Shown here: one piece after another, positions 17,853-27,584 of the stretch
Layout: every line of letters begins with the position of its first letter
Numbering within the stretch: the first letter of the stretch is position 1
From: Alkalispirochaeta sp.
GTDB lineage: Bacteria; Spirochaetota; Spirochaetia; DSM-27196; Alkalispirochaetaceae
Direction of reading: 5' to 3'
Assembly (NCBI GenBank): GCA_965242725.1
Contig: CBDESZ010000013.1
Span: 1 to 64,000, forward strand
Length of the DNA: 64,000 bases
Program-made: the position numbers and the translations under genes
The notes under the pieces: generated by a model
What the model saw: the letters and a program-made list of their open reading frames with translations, nothing else
The model's database searches: none
Told to the model about the DNA's origin: nothing

Positions 17853-18161
17853 ATGGTCGTCAGAATAATCACCGTTCATATAAAAGCCGGCACCGAGAAA
17901 GAGTTTGAAGCCATGACGCGGGAGAACCATCTCGGATCCCTTCAGGAGCCCGGCGTCCTGCGCTTTGACGTCCTCAGGGACGACGAACGGCCGCAGACGT
18001 ACTACCTCTATGAAGTTTACCGCGACGAGGCGGCGACAAAGGCGCACAAGGAGACGTCCCATTACCACGCGTGGAGGGAGGGCGTCGCCGACATTCTTGA
18101 AGGTGAACGTACCTCGGTGACGTGCACGCCCGTCGCGCCCACCGAAACGGGGTCATGGTAG
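17853..18161 (+). CDS. ABM (antibiotic biosynthesis monooxygenase) domain protein, LsrG-like
   Basis: EPGVLRFDV, LYEVY, AHKETSHY; GGAGG RBS. Confidence 0.85.
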   Translation: MVVRIITVHIKAGTEKEFEAMTRENHLGSLQEPGVLRFDVLRDDERPQTYYLYEVYRDEAATKAHKETSHYHAWREGVADILEGERTSVTCTPVAPTETGSW

Positions 18162-18168
18162 CGGACTA

Positions 18169-18197
18169 TTGACACGATATCGTCTTTTCGATACGAT
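18169..18197 (+). promoter_or_regulatory. Sigma70-type promoter with no downstream plus-strand gene
   Basis: TTGACA (18169-74), 17 nt spacer, TACGAT (18192-97). Confidence 0.7.
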
Positions 18198-18203
18198 TTT
18201 CGT

Positions 18204-18368
18204 CGAAAACACCAGACACAGTTCGTTTTCCGTAATCCGAGGGGTTTAATTGCGACCGTCGCAGACCGCATACCTCCTTTGTAAAATATATTATTCCCCC
18301 ATTACGTAGAATGCTCCGACTCCTCACGGGGCATTTTGAGGGCGCTTCGGCGCCCTTTTTTTATTTTT
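18204..18368 (+). ncRNA. Candidate ~165 nt small RNA
   Basis: Bounded by the promoter above and a strong terminator, between convergent genes; carries hairpins and C/U-rich anti-SD motifs. Confidence 0.55.
18339..18368 (+). terminator. Rho-independent terminator
   Basis: AGGGCGC-TTCG-GCGCCCT (C(UUCG)G tetraloop) followed by a T run. Confidence 0.9.
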
Positions 18369-18430
18369 CATTTTCAGATTGAACGCCGGCGTCACCGGAG
18401 CGGTATCGGCAGCGCCTCGCCGGTCCCCGC

Positions 18431-19459
18431 TCAGGGGCGCGCAAAGGCGTCCGACACGGCGCGGGCAAAGGTCTCGTATTCATGGCAGAGGCGGTCTTCC
18501 AGGGCGTCCAGCCGGGAATCGGGCTCCAGCCCGTCGCGCTTCCACGATTCAAGAACCTCTTCCAACCCGTCCCGCAGCGTCCGCCTGAAGGTGAAACCAG
18601 GTACGGCGCGGCGGAACTTGGTGCCGTCAAAGAGTCCGGGATAGCGCTTTTCAAAGAAGAGATGGCCGCCCCGCTCGGGGGACGCGCCGAATAGTACCGC
18701 CGCGGGAATATAGGTGAATTCAGGCTCCCGCCCGACGATCTCCCCGAATGTCCGGTAGAGGTCTCTCCACAGCGTCGGCTCCTCGGTGGCGATATGAAAG
18801 TCCTCACCAAAGGCTGCCGGATTACCGAGAAGCTCCACCATACCCCGGGCAACATCGTCGGCAAAGGAGAAGGACCACAAGCCCGTTCCGTCACCGAAAA
18901 GGACAAGCGGTCTGCCCCGCTTCAGGCGGTTCACAATATTCATGTTCTGTCGCAAAACGCCCACGTTGCGTGCTCCCGGACCAAAGGTGAGCGACGGCCT
19001 GACGATCGTCACCGGCGGGTGGGTCCCCCGGTACTCCTGAAAGGTCCGCTCCATTTCCCCCTTTTCAAACCCGTAGGTGTAGTCCCGGTCGGTACAATAC
19101 GTCTCGGCCTCTTCCCGGGTGGGAATGGATGTGTAGGGACGCTCGTACGCCGCAACTGAAGAGAGGACCAGTACGTGGTCACAGCGGTCGCGGAAGAGCC
19201 CCATCGTGGCGCGGGCATCGGCAGGAGAAAAACAGATCACGTCGATGACGTAGGTGAACGACCGCCCCTTCAATTGCCGCTCCAGCCCGTCCACATCGTG
19301 GCGATCACATACGATGAGCTCCGCTTCTCGCGGAACGACATCGCGGTTCGTCCCGCGATTGACCACTGTGACACCCACCCCGCGGTTGATGAGTTCCGTT
19401 ACCACCGCCCGGCTGATAACGCCGGTGCCGCCGAGTATGAGCGCTGTTTTTCCGTTCAT
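18431..19459 (-). CDS. NAD-dependent epimerase/dehydratase family (atypical SDR)
   Basis: LILGGTGVIS Rossmann motif, YGFEK, TIVRPSLTFG. Confidence 0.85.
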   Translation of the reverse strand: MNGKTALILGGTGVISRAVVTELINRGVGVTVVNRGTNRDVVPREAELIVCDRHDVDGLERQLKGRSFTYVIDVICFSPADARATMGLFRDRCDHVLVLSSVAAYERPYTSIPTREEAETYCTDRDYTYGFEKGEMERTFQEYRGTHPPVTIVRPSLTFGPGARNVGVLRQNMNIVNRLKRGRPLVLFGDGTGLWSFSFADDVARGMVELLGNPAAFGEDFHIATEEPTLWRDLYRTFGEIVGREPEFTYIPAAVLFGASPERGGHLFFEKRYPGLFDGTKFRRAVPGFTFRRTLRDGLEEVLESWKRDGLEPDSRLDALEDRLCHEYETFARAVSDAFARP

Positions 19460-19470
19460 CCCTTCGCCTC

Positions 19471-20211
19471 TCAATCCATTAAAAAGCCGCCGTTGATGTT
19501 CAGCACCTCTCCGGTGATGAATGCCGCGTCGTCGGACGCCAGGAAGAGCGTCGCGGCGGCGACCTCCTCGGGCCGGCAGAGGCGTTTCAGCGGAATTGAT
19601 TCAATCACATCCCGCCGCTTCTCCTCCGACCACTGGGCGCTCATATCCGTCTCCACCGCGTGGGGCGCCACCGCATTGACGGTGATTCCGTACTGAGCCA
19701 GTGAGCGTGCCAGCGATTTGGTGAGGGTGTTTACCGCCCCCTTTGACGTTCCATAGGCGGGGGCCGCCGTGATGTCGCCCATCTTTCCGGCTATGGAGGT
19801 GATATTCACGATCCGCCCGTACTCCTTCTTGACCATGTGGGGAATGACCGACTTGCAGCAATTGAAGGCGCCGTTCACATTCACATTCATCACCGCCTGC
19901 CACTCTTCATGGGAGAGCGTCTCTATCGTACCCCGGGCGATGATACCCGCGTTATTGACGAGAATATCCACCGTTCCGCGATCGGCGACGAGGTGCCGCA
20001 CGATGTCATCCACCGCATTGTGGTCGGTGATATCCACCGCAAAGGGAACGGCATTTCCGCCACCCGCCTGTATGTCCGCCGCGGTATCGTCAACGTTGTC
20101 CCGGTCCAGGAGGACAACGGTCGCTCCCTGGCCGGCAAATGTCACGGCAATCGCCCGTCCGATGCCACGGGCGGCACCGGTTACCACGGCAATTCGATTT
20201 TTCAGTTTCAT
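19471..20211 (-). CDS. Classical SDR oxidoreductase (FabG-like)
   Basis: TGAARGIG, NNAG, YGTSK. Confidence 0.92.
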   Translation of the reverse strand: MKLKNRIAVVTGAARGIGRAIAVTFAGQGATVVLLDRDNVDDTAADIQAGGGNAVPFAVDITDHNAVDDIVRHLVADRGTVDILVNNAGIIARGTIETLSHEEWQAVMNVNVNGAFNCCKSVIPHMVKKEYGRIVNITSIAGKMGDITAAPAYGTSKGAVNTLTKSLARSLAQYGITVNAVAPHAVETDMSAQWSEEKRRDVIESIPLKRLCRPEEVAAATLFLASDDAAFITGEVLNINGGFLMD

Positions 20212-20226
20212 AGAATCTCTCCTGTA

Positions 20227-21510
20227 TCAGCTTCCGTAGAGCAACCGCGGGAAAAAGAGCACCAGATCCGGCAGAAAGACGAGAATCCCGATCTGTATGA
20301 GAAAGGCGACAAGAAATACGAGGAACTCCCGCAGGTACTCCCTGGTCGGACAATCAAGAATGGAACAGACCGTATACATCGAAATCCCGATGGGCGGCGT
20401 CAGAAGGCCCATGGTGATGACGGAGCACATAATCAGGCCGAAGTGAACGGGATCGACACCGAGGGTGCGAACCATGGGAAGAAGTATCGGCGTCAGCAGG
20501 AGAATTGCCACTGACCCTTCCATAAACATGCCCACGATGACCAGAAAAAAGATGATCACCAGCATGACGATATTGGCATCCACGGAGACACCGGTGATAA
20601 ACTTCGTCAACGCCTGGGGCACTCGGTCAATGGGAATGCCATATGCAAAGAGCGAGGAGAGGGCGATGATAAACATGATCGCGCCGATATCGCGGATCGT
20701 CACATTGAGGGTCTCCACAAAGCGTTCCCATGTAAACTCCTTGTAGACAAAGACACCCACCGCCATTGCGTAGACACAGGCAAAGGCACCGACCTCGGAG
20801 GGAGTGAAGAGGCCGAATCGGATTCCCACAAGAAGGAGGATCGGAAATACGAGGGCCCACACCGTTTCACCGAGGGAGGAGAAGATCTCCCGTGCCGATG
20901 CCCGGGTCGGTCGCTCCGGTTTCCACCCCCGGATTCCCGCGGTCACCCTCACGGTTCCCATCATGACAAGCATCATGATAAGCCCCACCATGAGTCCGGC
21001 GGCAAAGAGCCGTCCGATGGAAACCTCCCCGACCGTTCCATAGATGATAATGCCGATACCCGGAGGAATCGTGGCGGTGATCAATGAGGTAAATCCGATC
21101 ACGCTGGCCGTGTATCCCCGGGTATAACCGCGCTGTATCATGCTCGGACCGAGAATACGTGATTCCATCGCCGCATCGGCGGTGGCGGAGCCGGAAACGC
21201 CCCCCATGAGGGTACTCAGGACGACGCTCACCTGGGCAAGGCCACCCTTCATATGTCCGGTAAGGAGTGTAGATAACCGCACGAGCCGCTCGGTAATGCC
21301 CGTGGCGTTCATGAGGTTACCCGCAAATATGAAGAGGGGAATCGCCAGCATCGGTACGCGCTGCGTCTGCGACACCGGCAGCTGGGCTATCATCGTCATA
21401 GGCAGCTCCGGATGCTGAAGAAAGAAGGTAGCCCCGGATATTCCTATGGCAAAGGCAACGGGCATTCCTATGGTGAGACAGATCACAAAGACGACGGCTA
21501 CGACGATCAT
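20227..21510 (-). CDS. dctM: TRAP transporter large permease
   Basis: LAIPLFIFAG, GVSGSATADA, FTPSE, VDPVHFG. Confidence 0.93.
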   Translation of the reverse strand: MIVVAVVFVICLTIGMPVAFAIGISGATFFLQHPELPMTMIAQLPVSQTQRVPMLAIPLFIFAGNLMNATGITERLVRLSTLLTGHMKGGLAQVSVVLSTLMGGVSGSATADAAMESRILGPSMIQRGYTRGYTASVIGFTSLITATIPPGIGIIIYGTVGEVSIGRLFAAGLMVGLIMMLVMMGTVRVTAGIRGWKPERPTRASAREIFSSLGETVWALVFPILLLVGIRFGLFTPSEVGAFACVYAMAVGVFVYKEFTWERFVETLNVTIRDIGAIMFIIALSSLFAYGIPIDRVPQALTKFITGVSVDANIVMLVIIFFLVIVGMFMEGSVAILLLTPILLPMVRTLGVDPVHFGLIMCSVITMGLLTPPIGISMYTVCSILDCPTREYLREFLVFLVAFLIQIGILVFLPDLVLFFPRLLYGS

Positions 21511-22013
21511 ATGACAGCTTCCTCTCTGTTTTCGTCCCGTCCGGAGGACGGACCAAACAGGGCGACGATCTTTTCAATTGTCGATCTGACAAGAAGCATG
21601 CTTCCAATGGGAAGGCTCAGGGTGATCCATGAGTAACTGAACGACGGAATTCCCTGAAAGGCGCGCTCCCGCGTTTTATACGCAAGGATAAAGCCGAAGT
21701 ATACAAGGGCGACAAGAAATACCAGAATGATCAGGTAAATCAACAGTTGCAGCCCTTTTCTCGCCCTGTCGGGAAGGGCGGTGATCAGAAAGTCGAGATT
21801 CACCAGCTTGTTTTCCCGATAGGCTACGTCGGCGCTGAAAAAAGTTGCCCACGCAAAGAGAAAGAGTGAGATATCCAGGGACCAGTTTATCGGCCTGGAA
21901 ATTGACCGCATGACGGCGGCGCCGAAAATCAGCGCCGTCGAGGAAACGAGACAGAAGGCGGCAACAACCGCCTCTGTCTGCTGAACTCTTCGTTCCAGTT
22001 TTTCAAGCTTCAT
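21507..22013 (-). CDS. dctQ: TRAP transporter small permease
   Basis: 4-TM protein between dctP and dctM; ATGA overlap with dctM. Confidence 0.88.
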   Translation of the reverse strand: MKLEKLERRVQQTEAVVAAFCLVSSTALIFGAAVMRSISRPINWSLDISLFLFAWATFFSADVAYRENKLVNLDFLITALPDRARKGLQLLIYLIILVFLVALVYFGFILAYKTRERAFQGIPSFSYSWITLSLPIGSMLLVRSTIEKIVALFGPSSGRDENREEAVI

Positions 22014-22028
22014 ACGGTATTGTAGAAA

Positions 22029-23033
22029 TTACTTGCCCATTTCCGCAAAAATCTGATTCCGGACATCCAGAAGGCCAAGCGCCTCGAATGCCGAATCCGA
22101 TGCCGCCTTGAACGCCTCGATATCGATTTCATCATTGGTGATGATGGTCATACCTTCTGCCTGGAGATTTTCCTTGGCCTGATCCACCAGCTCACCCATG
22201 ATGCGGCGAGAAACTTCCAGACCTGCCCGCTCACACTCTTCTTCAAGAATCGTCTGGTACTCAGCGGGAAGGGAGTCAAACCACTCGGCGCTGACGATGG
22301 CAAAGTTGATGAGCATGATGTGCTGCGTCTCAATGAGATAGTCCAGAACTTCATACATGCGGGTGCTGTAGGTAGCGGGATAGACGTTTCCCGCACCGTC
22401 GACAACCTTGGTCTGTACGCCGGTATAGACTTCGCCGTAATCGAGGGCGACGGGAGTTGCACCGAGGGAACGGATCGATTCCATCCAGATCGGTGCGTTG
22501 GGAGAACGGATACGCAATCCCTGGACGTCTGCGGGAGAATGGACGGGTTTATTGGTCAGGAGGTTCCGGAAACCCTGTACCCAGCTGAAGGAAAGCACTT
22601 TAATGCCGTATTCGTCTGCAAGCTGCTCTTTCCACCCCTGAACGGTATCCAGGGTATTTAGGGTCTCAACTTCTTCCAGGGAGTCGGCAAAATAGGGACC
22701 GTTCATCACGGCGATACCGGGAACGTAGTTCCCCAGACGTGCGGAGTCGGTATTCTGACCGATGTTGGCACCCTGGCGGATCTGCTCGATGATGTCCTCT
22801 TCCACTCCGAGTTGGGCGCTGTGGTAAACTTCAATCGTAAGGTTGCCGTCGGTACGCTCAGCGACGCGCTCGGCCCACTTGAGATAGGCGCCGTGGTAGG
22901 GGTCCTGCTCAGTCAATACGTGGTTGAACCGAAGAACATATTGCTGCTCACCTCCCTCACTCTGTCCTGACGCGAAGACAAGTCCTCCCACGAGAACTGT
23001 CGTAACAATAACAAGAACTAACAACCGTTTCAT
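22029..23033 (-). CDS. dctP: TRAP substrate-binding protein
   Basis: YHSAQLG, GFRNL, GLRIRSP, YTGVQTKVVDG. Confidence 0.93.
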   Translation of the reverse strand: MKRLLVLVIVTTVLVGGLVFASGQSEGGEQQYVLRFNHVLTEQDPYHGAYLKWAERVAERTDGNLTIEVYHSAQLGVEEDIIEQIRQGANIGQNTDSARLGNYVPGIAVMNGPYFADSLEEVETLNTLDTVQGWKEQLADEYGIKVLSFSWVQGFRNLLTNKPVHSPADVQGLRIRSPNAPIWMESIRSLGATPVALDYGEVYTGVQTKVVDGAGNVYPATYSTRMYEVLDYLIETQHIMLINFAIVSAEWFDSLPAEYQTILEEECERAGLEVSRRIMGELVDQAKENLQAEGMTIITNDEIDIEAFKAASDSAFEALGLLDVRNQIFAEMGK

Positions 23034-23043
23034 ATAACCTCCT

Positions 23044-23061
23044 TAACTGATATATCAGTTA
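23044..23061. promoter_or_regulatory. Perfect 18-bp palindrome, probable GntR operator
   Basis: TAACTGATATATCAGTTA, between the dctP promoter and its RBS. Confidence 0.75.
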
Positions 23062-23067
23062 TAATTC

Positions 23068-23096
23068 ATCTTAGACCCGCCGATTTTTGCTGTCAA
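23068..23096 (-). promoter_or_regulatory. Sigma70-type promoter of the dctPQM-SDR operon
   Basis: TTGACA, 17 nt spacer, TAAGAT. Confidence 0.7.
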
Positions 23097-23159
23097 CTGA
23101 AAATTTTATTGCCTGCCGGCTTTCTTCGGTTGCAACCTGAAATATAGAAGGCGTATGAT

Positions 23160-23897
23160 ATGGGTGTCGTGCTAATCCAGGAACGAGAAATCTCCCCCAT
23201 TCACCTCCATTCCGCATCGGAAGGCCGAAGTCTCAGCGACCGCGTGTATGATTATCTTTCGGAGCAGATCATTACCGGTGCGATCGCATACGGGGACCGC
23301 CTCAATATCAAGCACATCGCGGCGCAGCTCAACGTAAGTACCATACCGATCAGGGACGCCATGAAACGGCTTGAGCAGGAGCATGTCATCAGGATCCACC
23401 CCAGGAGCCATTGCACCGTCCGCATCCCCACAAAGAAGGGAATTCTCGATGCCATCGACTCACGAAGAATGGTGGAGCTTTTTGCCCTGCGTTCCGTATA
23501 CGGAACGGTCACGTCGGATCAGCTCGGTCGACTGAAATCGATCGTGGCGGACATGGACAGGATCGCCCGGGACCCGGAATCCCAGGATATTCCTTCAAGG
23601 GTCGCCAGGTATATAGAACTTGACCGGCAATTCCATACTGAAATCTGCAACCTGCCGCAAAACGACTATCTCCGACGCTTTTACCGGGAGATCAACATGC
23701 ATTTGAGCATGAGTTTCAGTTACGGTATCGGGGTGTGTCACGGCATTGAATCAACTTTCAAGGAACACAAGGAGATACTGCGTCTCCTTGAGGAGCACTC
23801 CCGTCAGGCAATTACCGTTCTGGAGCAGCATCTCCTTCACAGCAGAAAGAACATCATCGGGGAAGCGCGTTTTCAGTCGCTCCCGCCTGAAGAATAG
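23160..23897 (+). CDS. GntR family (FCD) transcriptional regulator
   Basis: LSDRVYDYL, LNVSTIPIRDA HTH, DRQFH and EHKEIL. The true start may be a few codons later. Confidence 0.9.
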   Translation: MGVVLIQEREISPIHLHSASEGRSLSDRVYDYLSEQIITGAIAYGDRLNIKHIAAQLNVSTIPIRDAMKRLEQEHVIRIHPRSHCTVRIPTKKGILDAIDSRRMVELFALRSVYGTVTSDQLGRLKSIVADMDRIARDPESQDIPSRVARYIELDRQFHTEICNLPQNDYLRRFYREINMHLSMSFSYGIGVCHGIESTFKEHKEILRLLEEHSRQAITVLEQHLLHSRKNIIGEARFQSLPPEE

Positions 23898-25371
23898 CGG
23901 CGTCTCCCGATACGCGGACACAGGCACCATCTTCACTCCAGCGGCTGAACTCCCCATCCAGTTCCTCAGCAAGCGCCCGGACGACGGTCAATCCGATGCC
24001 GTCGCCGGCGGATTGTTCCGAACCGTCGGCAAAACCGGGGCCGTTGTCTGAAACGGTCAGGCTCCACCGTTTCGCGCTGAGCCGAAAAGAGATCTTTATC
24101 TTCAGCTCTTTTTTGTCTTCCGCCGGGCGATAGGCATACTTGTAGGCGTTGGTAATGAGTTCATGAATGATCAGTCCCAGACGTCGTACCATATCCACGC
24201 CGAGAACGATCGGCTGGATGTCCAGCTCCACCCGTTCCGACAGCTCCCGTTCGCCCCAACCGGAAGCAAGCTGCCGTACAAGGGATCGGCAGTACTCGTC
24301 AAAGGGAAGAGAGGACATGCGGGCGTTGCCGTAGAGCAGCTCGTGAACCAGGGCGATCGATCGTATCCGTCCCCGAAAGGCAAGAACGGTCTCCCGCGCC
24401 CGTGAGTCTTCAATGGAATCCGCTGAAAGGGAAAGCAGTCCTTCCAGGATGCCGAGGTGGTTTTTCACACGGTGATTCGTCTCCCTCACAACCATTTCCT
24501 GGCTCCGCAGCATCGCCTCCTGGGTATTCCGGCGATGAATCTGGACAAAGAGAATCGCCAGGACCGCGTGGCCGAGAGCGAGATAGACGATACGCCACCA
24601 TAAACCTCTCTTCCACGCCCCCAGTACGTAATCGGAGTCAAAGGTGAGGACCACAAAAAAGGGGTGAGTACGCAGCTGCATGAGAGCAAAGACCGTCCCG
24701 TCACGGGAATCAACCGCCAGGGTACGTCCCTCCTCCGCTTTCGTCCGGATAAAATAGGCTCTACTGTCTGCCCGCGGGTCCGGCCACGCGGCAAGCTCGA
24801 CACCATCTCGGGTGTAGAGACTTGCCCATATGCCTGAACCGAGGGACAGTCTGAAGGTCTCTGCGATATACTTCCCGGGGATACAGGCAAACAGGATGTG
24901 CCCGCTTTCAAGTCTTCGTGATATTCCGATCGTCCCCTCACCGGCGTCATCGATACCGGTAAATATCTGGGTTGTACTCAGTGAACCTGTGTGCGCCCGA
25001 GTGACCTCATCGGGAAGCTCCGCCGGGGGACGCGGAGACCCGGGGCGCAGCGGCGTGCTCAACACCCCTGATGCGTCATATACCCCGCCGTTTGCGATAT
25101 GGGAGGAGAAAAGCAGTTCATCCTGTAACCGCTGGGCGCTGTTCACAGCCGACGGGGCGCTCCCTGCGGCGACGACGGCGAGGGACTCCTCGGTCATGCG
25201 GACAATATCGTCCACCGAAGTTCTGAGTAACTGGACGTAGGTCATCGCGAGGGTCTCAGTCGAATTGATTTCACGAAGACGGTACAACCACAGATCCACA
25301 ACGACAAAGACGGTCGCCATGAGCGATATTGCAGCATAAACGACGACGAGGTATCGCAGCTCCCGTTTCAT
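23854..25371 (-). CDS. Membrane sensor histidine kinase, HisKA_2 family, with a large extracytoplasmic domain
   Basis: Two TM segments; ETNHRVKNHL, HELITNAYKYA, DNGPG, GIGL. Confidence 0.88.
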   Translation of the reverse strand: MKRELRYLVVVYAAISLMATVFVVVDLWLYRLREINSTETLAMTYVQLLRTSVDDIVRMTEESLAVVAAGSAPSAVNSAQRLQDELLFSSHIANGGVYDASGVLSTPLRPGSPRPPAELPDEVTRAHTGSLSTTQIFTGIDDAGEGTIGISRRLESGHILFACIPGKYIAETFRLSLGSGIWASLYTRDGVELAAWPDPRADSRAYFIRTKAEEGRTLAVDSRDGTVFALMQLRTHPFFVVLTFDSDYVLGAWKRGLWWRIVYLALGHAVLAILFVQIHRRNTQEAMLRSQEMVVRETNHRVKNHLGILEGLLSLSADSIEDSRARETVLAFRGRIRSIALVHELLYGNARMSSLPFDEYCRSLVRQLASGWGERELSERVELDIQPIVLGVDMVRRLGLIIHELITNAYKYAYRPAEDKKELKIKISFRLSAKRWSLTVSDNGPGFADGSEQSAGDGIGLTVVRALAEELDGEFSRWSEDGACVRVSGDAAILQAGATENALPR

Positions 25372-26402
25372 TGTTCCGCCGCCGCACCCATCACATCGAG
25401 AATGCCTTCAGGAACACCCATTTCCCGCGCAAACCGTTCCTGATGGGACATGAGCTCGGTACGCACCCTGTTGAGTTCGACTTCTCCGACGACGTAAATA
25501 CCGATACCCCTCGATACAAGTATTCGCCGTGATTCCGTTGCCGCACGTCGTGCATTCCTGCGCTGGCCATCAACGACGGCGTCCCAGGCCTCACGAATGA
25601 TCTCCCGGTCTTCGGGACGCAGGGTCATCCAGAAGGAACGTCGAATGAGGGGTATGTACTGGGGAAAATACTGTGAATCCTCAAGCGCATTTGATACGCC
25701 GTAGCGCCAGAGCTCACCGCTCCGTACCGTCTCGTACGCGGTGAGAACGCCGTCTATGCGTCCGTTGAGGAGCCGTTGCGGCAGATCGGTCCAGGGAATC
25801 GATATCGGCCGGGCGCCAAGGGCTTCAACGCGCAGCTCATTTCCCAGGCCGCCCGCTACGCGTATGGTCAGACCGTCAAGCTGGTCGTGCCCCGTCACGG
25901 CGCGGCCCAGAAAGAACAAATGACCGTGACCAAGATCAAACCAGCGTCCCGGGACAACCACACCGAGAGCCGTTTCCAGGCGCTCGGTGATCAGCCGGCC
26001 CAGCTCACCGTCGGAGTGGTGGTGTATAAAATCGGCACTTCTCCCGAAAAAATAGGGGAGAAGAAAGGCGGACACCGCCGGTTCAAATCGACTGATGTTC
26101 CACGTTCCCGGTACCGCCATTTCCACCTGACCGTTCCGTAACGCCTGAAAGACATCGACATCGCGGAAGAGACTGCCGGAATGGTACACCTCGACGGTGA
26201 TACGTCCGTCGCTCCGGCGCTCAACCTCGCGGGCAAAGGCTTGAATTCCCCGGGTCTGGACGTGGTCTTCGGCGTTTTCCGATGAAACACGAATTGTGAC
26301 CGGTTGGGCGGCGATATACCGGGGGCCGATAAGACAAAAGGTAGTAAGAAACAGGAGAAAACTGATGCGAAGTACCACTACCTGTATTGTAGGATATTTC
26401 AA
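25368..26402 (-). CDS. Orphan DctP-like TRAP substrate-binding protein
   Basis: SDGRITVEVYHSGSLF, GLTIRV, LGARP; no dctQM adjacent; ATGA overlap with the kinase. Confidence 0.82.
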   Translation of the reverse strand: MKYPTIQVVVLRISFLLFLTTFCLIGPRYIAAQPVTIRVSSENAEDHVQTRGIQAFAREVERRSDGRITVEVYHSGSLFRDVDVFQALRNGQVEMAVPGTWNISRFEPAVSAFLLPYFFGRSADFIHHHSDGELGRLITERLETALGVVVPGRWFDLGHGHLFFLGRAVTGHDQLDGLTIRVAGGLGNELRVEALGARPISIPWTDLPQRLLNGRIDGVLTAYETVRSGELWRYGVSNALEDSQYFPQYIPLIRRSFWMTLRPEDREIIREAWDAVVDGQRRNARRAATESRRILVSRGIGIYVVGEVELNRVRTELMSHQERFAREMGVPEGILDVMGAAAEQ

Positions 26403-26474: not shown

Positions 26475-27584
26475 ATGAAATCACTGGTAGACCAGGTTCA
26501 AGAAACGCTCTTGATGGGTCCCGGACCGTCTTCGGTGCCGCCGGAGGTGTATCGCGCCCTGTCACAGTACAGTCTCGGTCACCTCGATCCGTATTTTATC
26601 AAGATCATGGACGCCATCAAAGGACAGCTCCGTGAGGTCATGCAGACAAGGAACAAGATCACCCTTCCCATGTCGGGCACCGGTAGTGCCGGAATGGAAA
26701 CGGTTCTGGTAAATCTGATAGAGCCGAATGACAACGTCCTGGTCCTCATAAACGGCGTTTTCGGCGGAAGGATGAAAGAGATCGCCACGCGCCTGCGGGC
26801 TGAGGTGGATACCCTTGAATTTGAATGGGGTACACCTGTCATTGCAGAGGACGTCAGAAAGCAGCTTGAGAAAAAGACGTACAAGATTGTCGCCGTTGTG
26901 CACGCGGAGACGTCCACGGGCGTCGCCAATCCGGTGGAGGCAATTTCCGGAGTCGTGCGGGAGCATGGTGCGCTCTTTGTCGTCGACGCGGTGACGAGTC
27001 TCGGCGGCATGCCCGTTCTCGTCGATGAATGGGGGATTGACGCCCTCTACAGCGGTACACAGAAATGTCTCTCCTGCCCGCCCGGACTGGCACCGGTCAC
27101 CATTTCCGAGCGCGCCGCGCAAACCATCACCTCCCGCAAGACAAAGGTGCCCAACTGGTACCTTGACCTGAGCCTCCTCATGAACTACTGGGAAGGTTCC
27201 ACCCGGGCATACCACCACACGGCGCCGATAAACATGAACTACGCCCTCTATGCGGCGCTGAAGGTCGTCCTTGACGAGGGGCTTGAGAAGGTATGGGCCC
27301 GGCATCACGAGACTCATCGCTACCTTGTGGAACGATTCGGTGAACTGGGCTTCAAGATGCTTGTGGACGAGCCCTATCGCCTGCCGATGCTCAACGCGGT
27401 GGTTATCCCCGACGGTGTAGATGACAAGGATGTGCGCAGTCGCCTTCTCAATGAACACCGTATTGAAATCGGCGGTGGTCTGGGCGCCCTGGCGGGAAAA
27501 ATCTGGCGGGTCGGTATCATGGGCTACAACGCACGCACCGAAACGGTGGATCGACTGGTGGAGGCGCTCAGAAAAATTCTCTGA
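26475..27584 (+). CDS. Alanine--glyoxylate/serine--pyruvate aminotransferase family (class V PLP)
   Basis: LLMGPGPS, VHAETSTG, VDAVTSLGG, SGTQKCL, WRVGIMG. Confidence 0.92.
   Translation: MKSLVDQVQETLLMGPGPSSVPPEVYRALSQYSLGHLDPYFIKIMDAIKGQLREVMQTRNKITLPMSGTGSAGMETVLVNLIEPNDNVLVLINGVFGGRMKEIATRLRAEVDTLEFEWGTPVIAEDVRKQLEKKTYKIVAVVHAETSTGVANPVEAISGVVREHGALFVVDAVTSLGGMPVLVDEWGIDALYSGTQKCLSCPPGLAPVTISERAAQTITSRKTKVPNWYLDLSLLMNYWEGSTRAYHHTAPINMNYALYAALKVVLDEGLEKVWARHHETHRYLVERFGELGFKMLVDEPYRLPMLNAVVIPDGVDDKDVRSRLLNEHRIEIGGGLGALAGKIWRVGIMGYNARTETVDRLVEALRKIL

Follow-up and report, generated by a model that had tools for sequence, protein, structure and literature searches.

A small RNA gene unit with its own promoter, two anti-Shine-Dalgarno (anti-SD) motifs and an intrinsic terminator was found between two convergent genes in the window, the whole stretch of 64,000 nt of an Alkalispirochaeta sp. 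contig that was analysed. Judged from its conservation in four species, the unit is real and under selection, and its product is very probably a transcribed non-coding RNA. It is best read as an undescribed, lineage-restricted small RNA (sRNA) of about 155-180 nt. With a probability of roughly 0.55, and by analogy with AbcR1 and NfeR1, this RNA would act in trans and block ribosome-binding sites (RBSs) with its anti-SD motifs. The features of the locus are collected in Table 1.

Table 1. Features of the sRNA locus, in positions of the window
Feature	Position	Strand	Remarks
Upstream ABM-family gene, LsrG-like	17853..18161	+	PF03992; NF007791 at 85 bits, below the cut-off of 135
−35 hexamer TTGACA	18169..18174	+	identical in 4/4 homologues despite divergence of the 17-nt spacer
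Inverted repeat proposed as operator	18185..18209	.	arms 18185-91 and 18203-09; present, not conserved
−10 hexamer TACGAT (TAnnnT)	18192..18197	+	always 17 nt after the −35 hexamer
Predicted small RNA, about 160 nt	18204..18362	+	promoter, terminator, fold z −4.07; 5′ end inferred from the −10 hexamer
5′ segment CGAAA...	18204..18215	+	helix P0 with the stretch before anti-SD motif 1 possible in G006, G007 and G008
Helix P1, 5′ arm, long and interrupted	18231..18244	+	CGUA invariant in 4/4; outer helix 92.9% paired, inner 69.2%
19-codon ORF proposed as peptide	18250..18309	+	start TTG 18250; not conserved
Anti-SD motif 1, CAUACCUCCUUU	18269..18280	+	CAYACCUCCUU in all four; predicted unpaired probability 0.94 in G000
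Helix P1, 3′ arm, containing CCCCC	18296..18306	+	predicted paired with 18231-18244; only CCC and CG invariant
Hairpin displaying anti-SD motif 2	18307..18338	+	core of 5 pairs 100% paired in four sequences, 3 changed on both sides
Anti-SD motif 2, loop ACUCCUCA	18319..18326	+	GACUCCUCAC invariant in four
Intrinsic terminator (GC stem, UUCG loop, U run)	18338..18362	+	9 pairs, 100% paired in the alignment
Downstream convergent NAD-dependent epimerase/dehydratase gene	18431..19459	-	PF01370; in this genome only

The transcription unit and its conservation

A sequence check of the window recovered every element that an earlier note on this DNA had listed, each at its position, including the proposed promoter with its 17-nt spacer. 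The promoter begins 8 nt past the stop codon of the ABM gene, scores 10/12 against the consensus and is the top one of 3 sites within 2.5 kb (shuffle mean 0.8). In the homologues the −10 hexamer reads TACGGT (G006 and G007) or TAGGCT (G008). Genome-wide, TTGACA and TANNNT were found 87 times at a spacing of 17, compared with 7-25 times at each of ten other spacings, and 70 of the 87 sites lie at most 150 nt from a gene called by our own rough script, which is not an annotation and also supplied the binding-protein label used below. By these counts TTGACA-17-TANNNT is the real promoter consensus of the genome, and the sRNA promoter is credible for the host organism. The sRNA promoter is among the exceptions, as the nearest + strand gene downstream lies 4962 nt away, and it is the sole one of the 87 to be followed by ACCTCCT within 170 nt. 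Ten other promoters without a gene were inspected and dropped as sRNA candidates; four lead, as judged by eye, to tRNA-like sequence, one sharing the same −10 hexamer, and most of the others to missed genes.

The C(UUCG)G terminator with U tail described in the earlier note is present (18338-57, T run 18356-62) and kept in all four homologues, with a 4-nt insertion in the loop of G006. Its U tail forms on the + strand only and it ends about 70 nt short of the end of the convergent epimerase gene. Homologous RNAs of about 160-180 nt are predicted in G006, G007 and G008. In its own genome (G000) the sRNA is single-copy; blastn and nhmmer found neither paralogues nor a long antisense partner there, and two short matches on contig C25 fall inside a gene.

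Homologues were found in 4 of 17 genomes of the genus (G000, G006, G007 and G008). None was found in the remaining 82 of the 99 genomes of the order, which were searched with strict filters and of which many are incomplete. A blast search against 61 relatives yielded two of the homologues, and a motif pattern run over the 99 order genomes yielded the third. A covariance model built from the four sequences (R1), run on the same 99 genomes with only 28 candidates scored per genome, returned its four training sequences as strong matches and 10 weak ones, all of which were rejected as terminators or coding DNA lacking the promoter or CCTCC. A sequence-only model (R2) run on 22 genomes of the family found the same four and 4 weak matches judged to be chance. 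Pattern searches gave one match in genome contigs (a copy of the G007 type), none in viral contigs, and 86 loci in metagenomes, of which only L031 was real and equals the G008 copy over the part compared. Two order-level patterns gave 8 and 6 matches with 4 real ones in each, the two extra among the six being judged on their first 80 bases, and a class-level pattern of promoter plus motif gave 40 matches in 37 of 401 genomes, of which 33 were examined. In G009 the contig stops just where the sRNA would start by synteny with G006.

Conservation in relatives, on which the earlier note had made its proposal depend, was thus found in four species, which keep promoter, motifs, hairpin and terminator. 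Shared by all four are TTGACA, a 17-nt spacer of unrelated sequence, TAnnnT, the 5′ CGAAA, CGUA, CAYACCUCCUU, GACUCCUCAC and the UUCG terminator. At 4-fold degenerate sites the neighbouring ABM gene is 24-55% identical, and 2 of 28 such sites are invariant in all four species. Because these sites are nearly saturated across the same species, the invariant sRNA motifs appear to be under selection. In a tree of the ABM protein (102 columns) the carriers were left unresolved within a group of 14 rows, so that their treatment as one clade is not supported. No Rfam family matched the window at the gathering score. The Rfam search, suggested in the earlier note, gave only weak matches, the best for the window copy being CcsR1 (19.8 bits, E 0.024, cut-off 65.3), and the three homologue loci had no CcsR1 match at E up to 1. 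A literature search, with subscription journals and supplements outside its range, returned nothing on this sRNA or on anti-SD sRNAs of the genus.

Anti-SD motifs, putative targets and known sRNAs

The anti-SD word ACCTCCTTT noted earlier at 18272-80 was confirmed within motif 1, whose ACCUCCUUU is identical over 9 nt to the organism's own 16S tail (16S 3′ ends at C25:329080 and on C30). This seed is predicted to be largely unpaired in G000 and less so in the homologues (0.77, 0.74 and 0.55, the last in G006). Seed 2 has a predicted unpaired probability of 1.0 in G000 and G007, 0.82 in G006 and 0.47 in G008, where the loop is partly closed. By prediction, the RNA thus has the conserved accessible seed of a base-pairing sRNA. 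With this spacing, the pair of anti-SD words is found a single time in the window and in 0/100 shuffles, the pattern having been chosen after the fact.

These results partly bear out the earlier note. Its proposal of a stand-alone non-coding RNA displaying two anti-SD motifs is supported, as promoter, motifs, hairpin and terminator are kept while the neighbours change, and its additional seed, operator and peptide were not supported. The additional seed, UUCCCCC, does lie at 18294-300; it belongs to an arm of P1, with a mean unpaired probability of 0.33. Since it is predicted to form one arm of a helix, an RsaE-like third seed was dropped.

Ordinary Shine-Dalgarno sites are used in this genome, with AGGAG before 827 and GGAGG before 768 of 3932 called genes. 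AAGGAGG precedes 36 of 106 genes of substrate-binding-like proteins, compared with 88 of 3813 others. Given this excess of AAGGAGG, binding-protein mRNAs would be the first to be met by an anti-SD RNA of any kind. Target prediction, proposed as a check in the earlier note, singled out no message: a duplex-energy ranking of 3919 start regions gave no outlier, and five candidates (hsp20, floA, infC, a family-5 binding protein and amtB) were followed up in five relatives with the same outcome. An enrichment of binding-protein genes among the best seed-1 sites (17 of 106 in the top 200) was rejected as generic to any anti-SD sequence, because the conserved flank lowers the match: with the CAU and CAC flanks 14 and 7 binding-protein genes reach the top 200, compared with 32 for the bare core, and these flanks rank 25 and 38 of 64 by AUC for binding-protein sites.

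Among the five candidates, floA could be located in none of the three other carriers. The sites of the other four showed no covariation with the CAU/CAC change, paired more weakly with the G006 and G008 seeds, and paired as well or nearly as well in G013, where no sRNA was found. amtB carries UGAGGAGGU, which fits both seeds, in 5/5 genomes including G013. At infC (L203, L214-L218), the called UUG start is immediately preceded by GGGAGGUAUG in G009 and all four carriers and by GGGAGGUAUA in G013; the infC site matches seed 1 over 9 bp in G000 and G007, and does not match the CAC form.

Hfq (PF17209) was not found in 5/5 genomes (G000, G006, G007, G008 and G014; 81-96% complete) by a search whose control matched 5/14. 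Jag/KhpB was found in all five, with Jag_N matched twice in each. One Jag_N match per genome lies in a frame of about 580-710 aa, which we take to be longer than usual for KhpB.

From sequence and conservation, sigma-70 RNA polymerase would start near 18204 and stop at the UUCG terminator. Two anti-SD seeds would then be held single-stranded, the one in a large loop closed by P1 and the other in an 8-nt hairpin loop, as the predicted fold suggests. By likeness to AbcR1/2 and NfeR1, the seeds would pair with strong RBSs on mRNAs from other loci and keep the 30S subunit from loading, and the RBS-blocking mechanism that the earlier note proposed is plausible. As no Hfq was found, pairing may proceed unaided or with the help of another chaperone such as KhpB. 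Messages with AAGGAGG, rich in those for transporter substrate-binding proteins, would be the most exposed, and damping of nutrient uptake genes would be the likeliest role. The sRNA probably damps the translation of some messages. To our knowledge, base-pairing riboregulation has hardly been described in free-living spirochaetes. The two-seed RNA would mean that the AbcR/NfeR design has arisen anew in a different phylum, and it could be used to ask whether sRNAs have any chaperone, and which, in genomes in which Hfq was not found; its value is limited by its narrow spread over 4 species.

RsaE/RoxS RNAs act independently of Hfq and carry several unpaired, C-rich UCCC seeds that cover RBSs. 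The likeness to them seen in the earlier note extends to C-rich single-stranded seeds that cover RBSs. The seed is an unpaired UCCC in those RNAs, whereas the sole such run here is paired and not conserved as a word, and there is no Rfam match. The same likeness and difference apply to RNAIII of Firmicutes, to which UCCC loops are ascribed (PMC4615179).

According to PMC8844928, AbcR1/AbcR2 (alpha-r15) of the Rhizobiales repress transporter mRNAs, largely those for binding proteins, at the RBS. They are described there as stand-alone trans sRNAs built like the present RNA: of two dissimilar anti-SD motifs, one is displayed by a hairpin loop and the other lies unpaired between helices. They differ in their motifs (CUCCUCCC and UUCCCCUC, absent here), in the order of the motifs, which is reversed, in length (114-121 nt compared with 160-180 here), in binding Hfq, which was not found here, and in phylum; neither a sequence nor an Rfam match links them to the present RNA. 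NfeR1 (alpha-r14) and the cuckoo/CcsR RNAs of Alphaproteobacteria have in common with it an anti-SD in a hairpin loop on a freely varying stem, and cuckoo RNAs are defined by such loop-borne motifs on variable stems (PMC4615179); NfeR1 is described as not Hfq-binding (PMC4615179, PMC8844928). Cuckoo RNAs have, by the same account, 2-4 adjacent hairpins each with CCUCCUCCC, whereas here a single loop displays ACUCCUCA.

The RNA might instead serve as a decoy that mimics the 16S tail, or sponges a protein or RNAs reading CCUCCU, and represses no mRNA directly. Both the identity to the 16S tail over 9 nt and the failure to find a specific mRNA target or Hfq are in line with this, and the fact that neither motif varies could reflect one fixed partner just as well as a multitude of mRNAs. 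However, just ahead of the shared core the RNA reads CAY where the 16S tail has AUC, and the second motif is unlike that tail. The + strand RNA of G000 has no GGA and is hence no CsrA-type sponge, and the known RNAs of like anatomy pair with mRNAs (PMC8844928, PMC4615179). A decoy is rather unlikely, and blocking of RBSs in trans is preferred.

Predicted fold and crossing 5′ helices

The z-score of the predicted fold (−4.07) was reached by 0/200 shuffles and drops to −2.25 without the terminator; the body of G006 alone folds no better than shuffles (z −0.37). In the consensus structure 88.3% of 137 cells are paired. The covariation among relatives that the earlier note had proposed looking for was suggested by 6 pairs changed on both sides in the four sequences, compared with at most 53% paired and 4 such changes when the partners were slid, and 7/500 shuffles reached 6 pairs. 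As the structure was drawn from the same four related sequences on which it is scored, these pair counts lean in its favour, and the pair-preserving changes are suggestive of the structure and not proof of it. The hairpin with an anti-SD loop proposed earlier (arms 18310-18 and 18327-35) is present, and both its motif and its pairing are kept in 4/4 homologues. Its G-U pairs favour the + strand.

In the 5′ domain the predicted helices P0 and P1 cross and have similar energy. P0 has 78.6% of its cells paired and one pair changed on both sides; it amounts to 12 perfect pairs in G008, is present in G006 and G007, and is absent from G000, where the 5′ segment pairs only locally with 18225-18230. 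P1 is strong in G000, G006 and G008 and weak in G007. The ensemble gap between the P0 and P1 states was calculated as 0.8 kcal/mol in G006, 3.8 in G008, 4.3 in G000 and 8.3 in G007. When P1 was barred, the predicted exposure of seed 1 was reduced in G000 (0.36 instead of 0.94) and in G008 (0.41 instead of 0.74). It did not change with the state in G006 (0.59 vs 0.51) and changed little in G007 (0.77 vs 0.67). The crossing helices may act as a switch or stack into a pseudoknot, or the fold may simply have drifted from one form to the other, with the seed free in each.

If they gate the seed, P0 would let the freed 3′ arm or the G run cover anti-SD motif 1 and P1 would expose it, with the state set by a ligand, a protein, temperature or salt; alternatively, the two helices would stack as a pseudoknot. 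For such gating speak the pairing-keeping changes in both helices, the occurrence of P0 and of P1 in three genomes each, the narrow gaps in G006 and G008, and the loss of seed-1 exposure in G000 and G008 when P1 is barred. Against it, G000 lacks P0 and G007 has little P1, the exposure is unchanged by state in G006 and little changed in G007, changes on both sides are confined to a single pair per helix, and drift between two seed-free folds explains the data equally well. Gating is considered unlikely, and the same doubt attaches to the extended proposal of a self-gating sRNA, in which a 5′ sensor domain, as switch or pseudoknot, would hide or expose the 16S-tail-like seed and make the RNA a trans-acting, riboswitch-like regulator. 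A gated seed would make the mechanism of the RNA an unusual one.

Genomic context and other readings

Of 19 loci with an ABM orthologue, 3 have the sRNA immediately after that gene; these are three of the four carriers. In G006 an opposite-strand gene stands between the two, and the sRNA motifs are absent from the 420 nt behind 15 of the 19 ABM orthologues (16 counting G006). Downstream, the other carriers have a class V aminotransferase gene (G006 and G008) or an AcuI-like gene (G007). Because the neighbours vary and the G006 gene separates the sRNA from ABM, the sRNA appears to be neither a 3′ UTR nor a leader. At sequence level, promoter and terminator are independent of the neighbours in three downstream contexts.

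The element could still act in cis, as a long ABM 3′ UTR or an attenuator leader of the aminotransferase gene. Its position behind ABM in most carriers would suit the former, and no terminator-like site lies between ABM and the sRNA in the window, so that read-through from ABM would end at the sRNA's terminator; for the latter, the sRNA lies upstream of the same-strand aminotransferase gene in G006 and G008, and leaders typically show alternative folds. However, the intervening gene in G006 and the 15 ABM orthologues without the motifs argue against a 3′ UTR, and the concern raised in the earlier note, that the region is only the ABM 3′ UTR, is probably unfounded. A leader is opposed by the + strand, empty here for 4962 nt downstream, by the different downstream gene in G007, by the aminotransferase gene's own extended −10 in 5/5 close genomes, and by P0 and P1, which are both clear of the terminator. 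In these genomes neither a constant same-strand downstream gene nor an alternative fold disrupting the terminator, as for a riboswitch or attenuator, was found. A cis element is thus quite unlikely, and a stand-alone trans-acting sRNA is favoured.

In the window about 8 kb (18431-26378; epimerase, SDR, TRAP transporter, GntR regulator and sensor genes) separate the sRNA from the aminotransferase gene (26475-27584). As that gene directly follows the sRNA in G006 and G008, the block looks inserted here. The gene between ABM and the sRNA in G006 (L114:876-1343, minus strand) encodes a secreted-looking protein of 155 aa, is divergent from the sRNA promoter and is also present in G009 (L008). It has no NCBIfam match, and Rfam at gathering score gave 0 matches on L114.

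The 19-aa peptide considered in the earlier note as an alternative did not find support, as the homologue ORFs lie in two frames and differ in length without a shared start; no reading frame is conserved, as expected of a trans sRNA. That the RNA is instead a short peptide-coding mRNA, on whichever strand, is very unlikely: GAGGGG lies 5 nt upstream of TTG 18250, G007 has a same-frame ORF with YLL in common, and on the minus strand AAGGAGGU is followed by AUG or GUG in all four, yet the + strand ORFs are unrelated in length and start, the minus-strand frames run for 69, 78, 15 and 1 codons with no promoter-like site nearby on that strand, and the homologue indels are not multiples of three. 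6S RNA is one long hairpin with a central bubble. That the sRNA is the missing 6S or another housekeeping RNA of these spirochaetes is the least probable reading, for which speak its size of about 160-180 nt, its strong promoter and the failure of Rfam 6S (RF00013) to be found in 5/5 genomes (G000, G006, G007, G008 and G014, one in a single contig), and against which stand its fold as a chain of three to four domains with its own terminator, its presence in only 4/17 genomes of the genus and a 6S search without a match even with E allowed to reach 10.

The inverted repeat that was proposed as operator has no counterpart of 6 bp at the same place in 3/3 homologues, and a perfect 7-bp inverted repeat occurs in 11 of the 87 promoter spans, no more than by chance. 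A perfect 10-bp palindrome at 18174-18183 overlaps the end of the −35 hexamer and is absent from the three homologues.

The pattern of promoter plus motif also revealed, in 4 genomes of another genus (g124), a candidate for a second anti-SD sRNA with two seeds, unrelated to the first (L200:2002-2135, plus strand, in G385; L197 in G277, L198 in G400 and L199 in G375, minus strand). It has a TTGACA-17-TATnnT promoter with a conserved palindrome, TTTGTATACAAA, just upstream, which is presumably a GntR-like operator, followed by about 100 nt with two copies of TTTACCTCCTTTT (in a linker and in the last hairpin loop) and a U tail. It lies near a phosphofructokinase gene in 3 of 4 genomes, and the G385 copy has no Rfam match. 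This second family hints that the two-seed design is common in the phylum. At L195 (G382:C279:4443-4650), a promoter leads into AT-rich sequence that lacks ORFs and contains an anti-SD word as well as long hairpins, a further sRNA candidate; Rfam at gathering score gave 0 matches on L195 and L196. Finally, TGAACGCCGGCGT behind a T-rich run recurs at 18379-18394 of the window, elsewhere in G000 (C7:56260, C31:34451 and C26:85189-85227) and in G008 (L004:1520-1540), and these intergenic recurrences are possibly a small repeat or an insertion scar.
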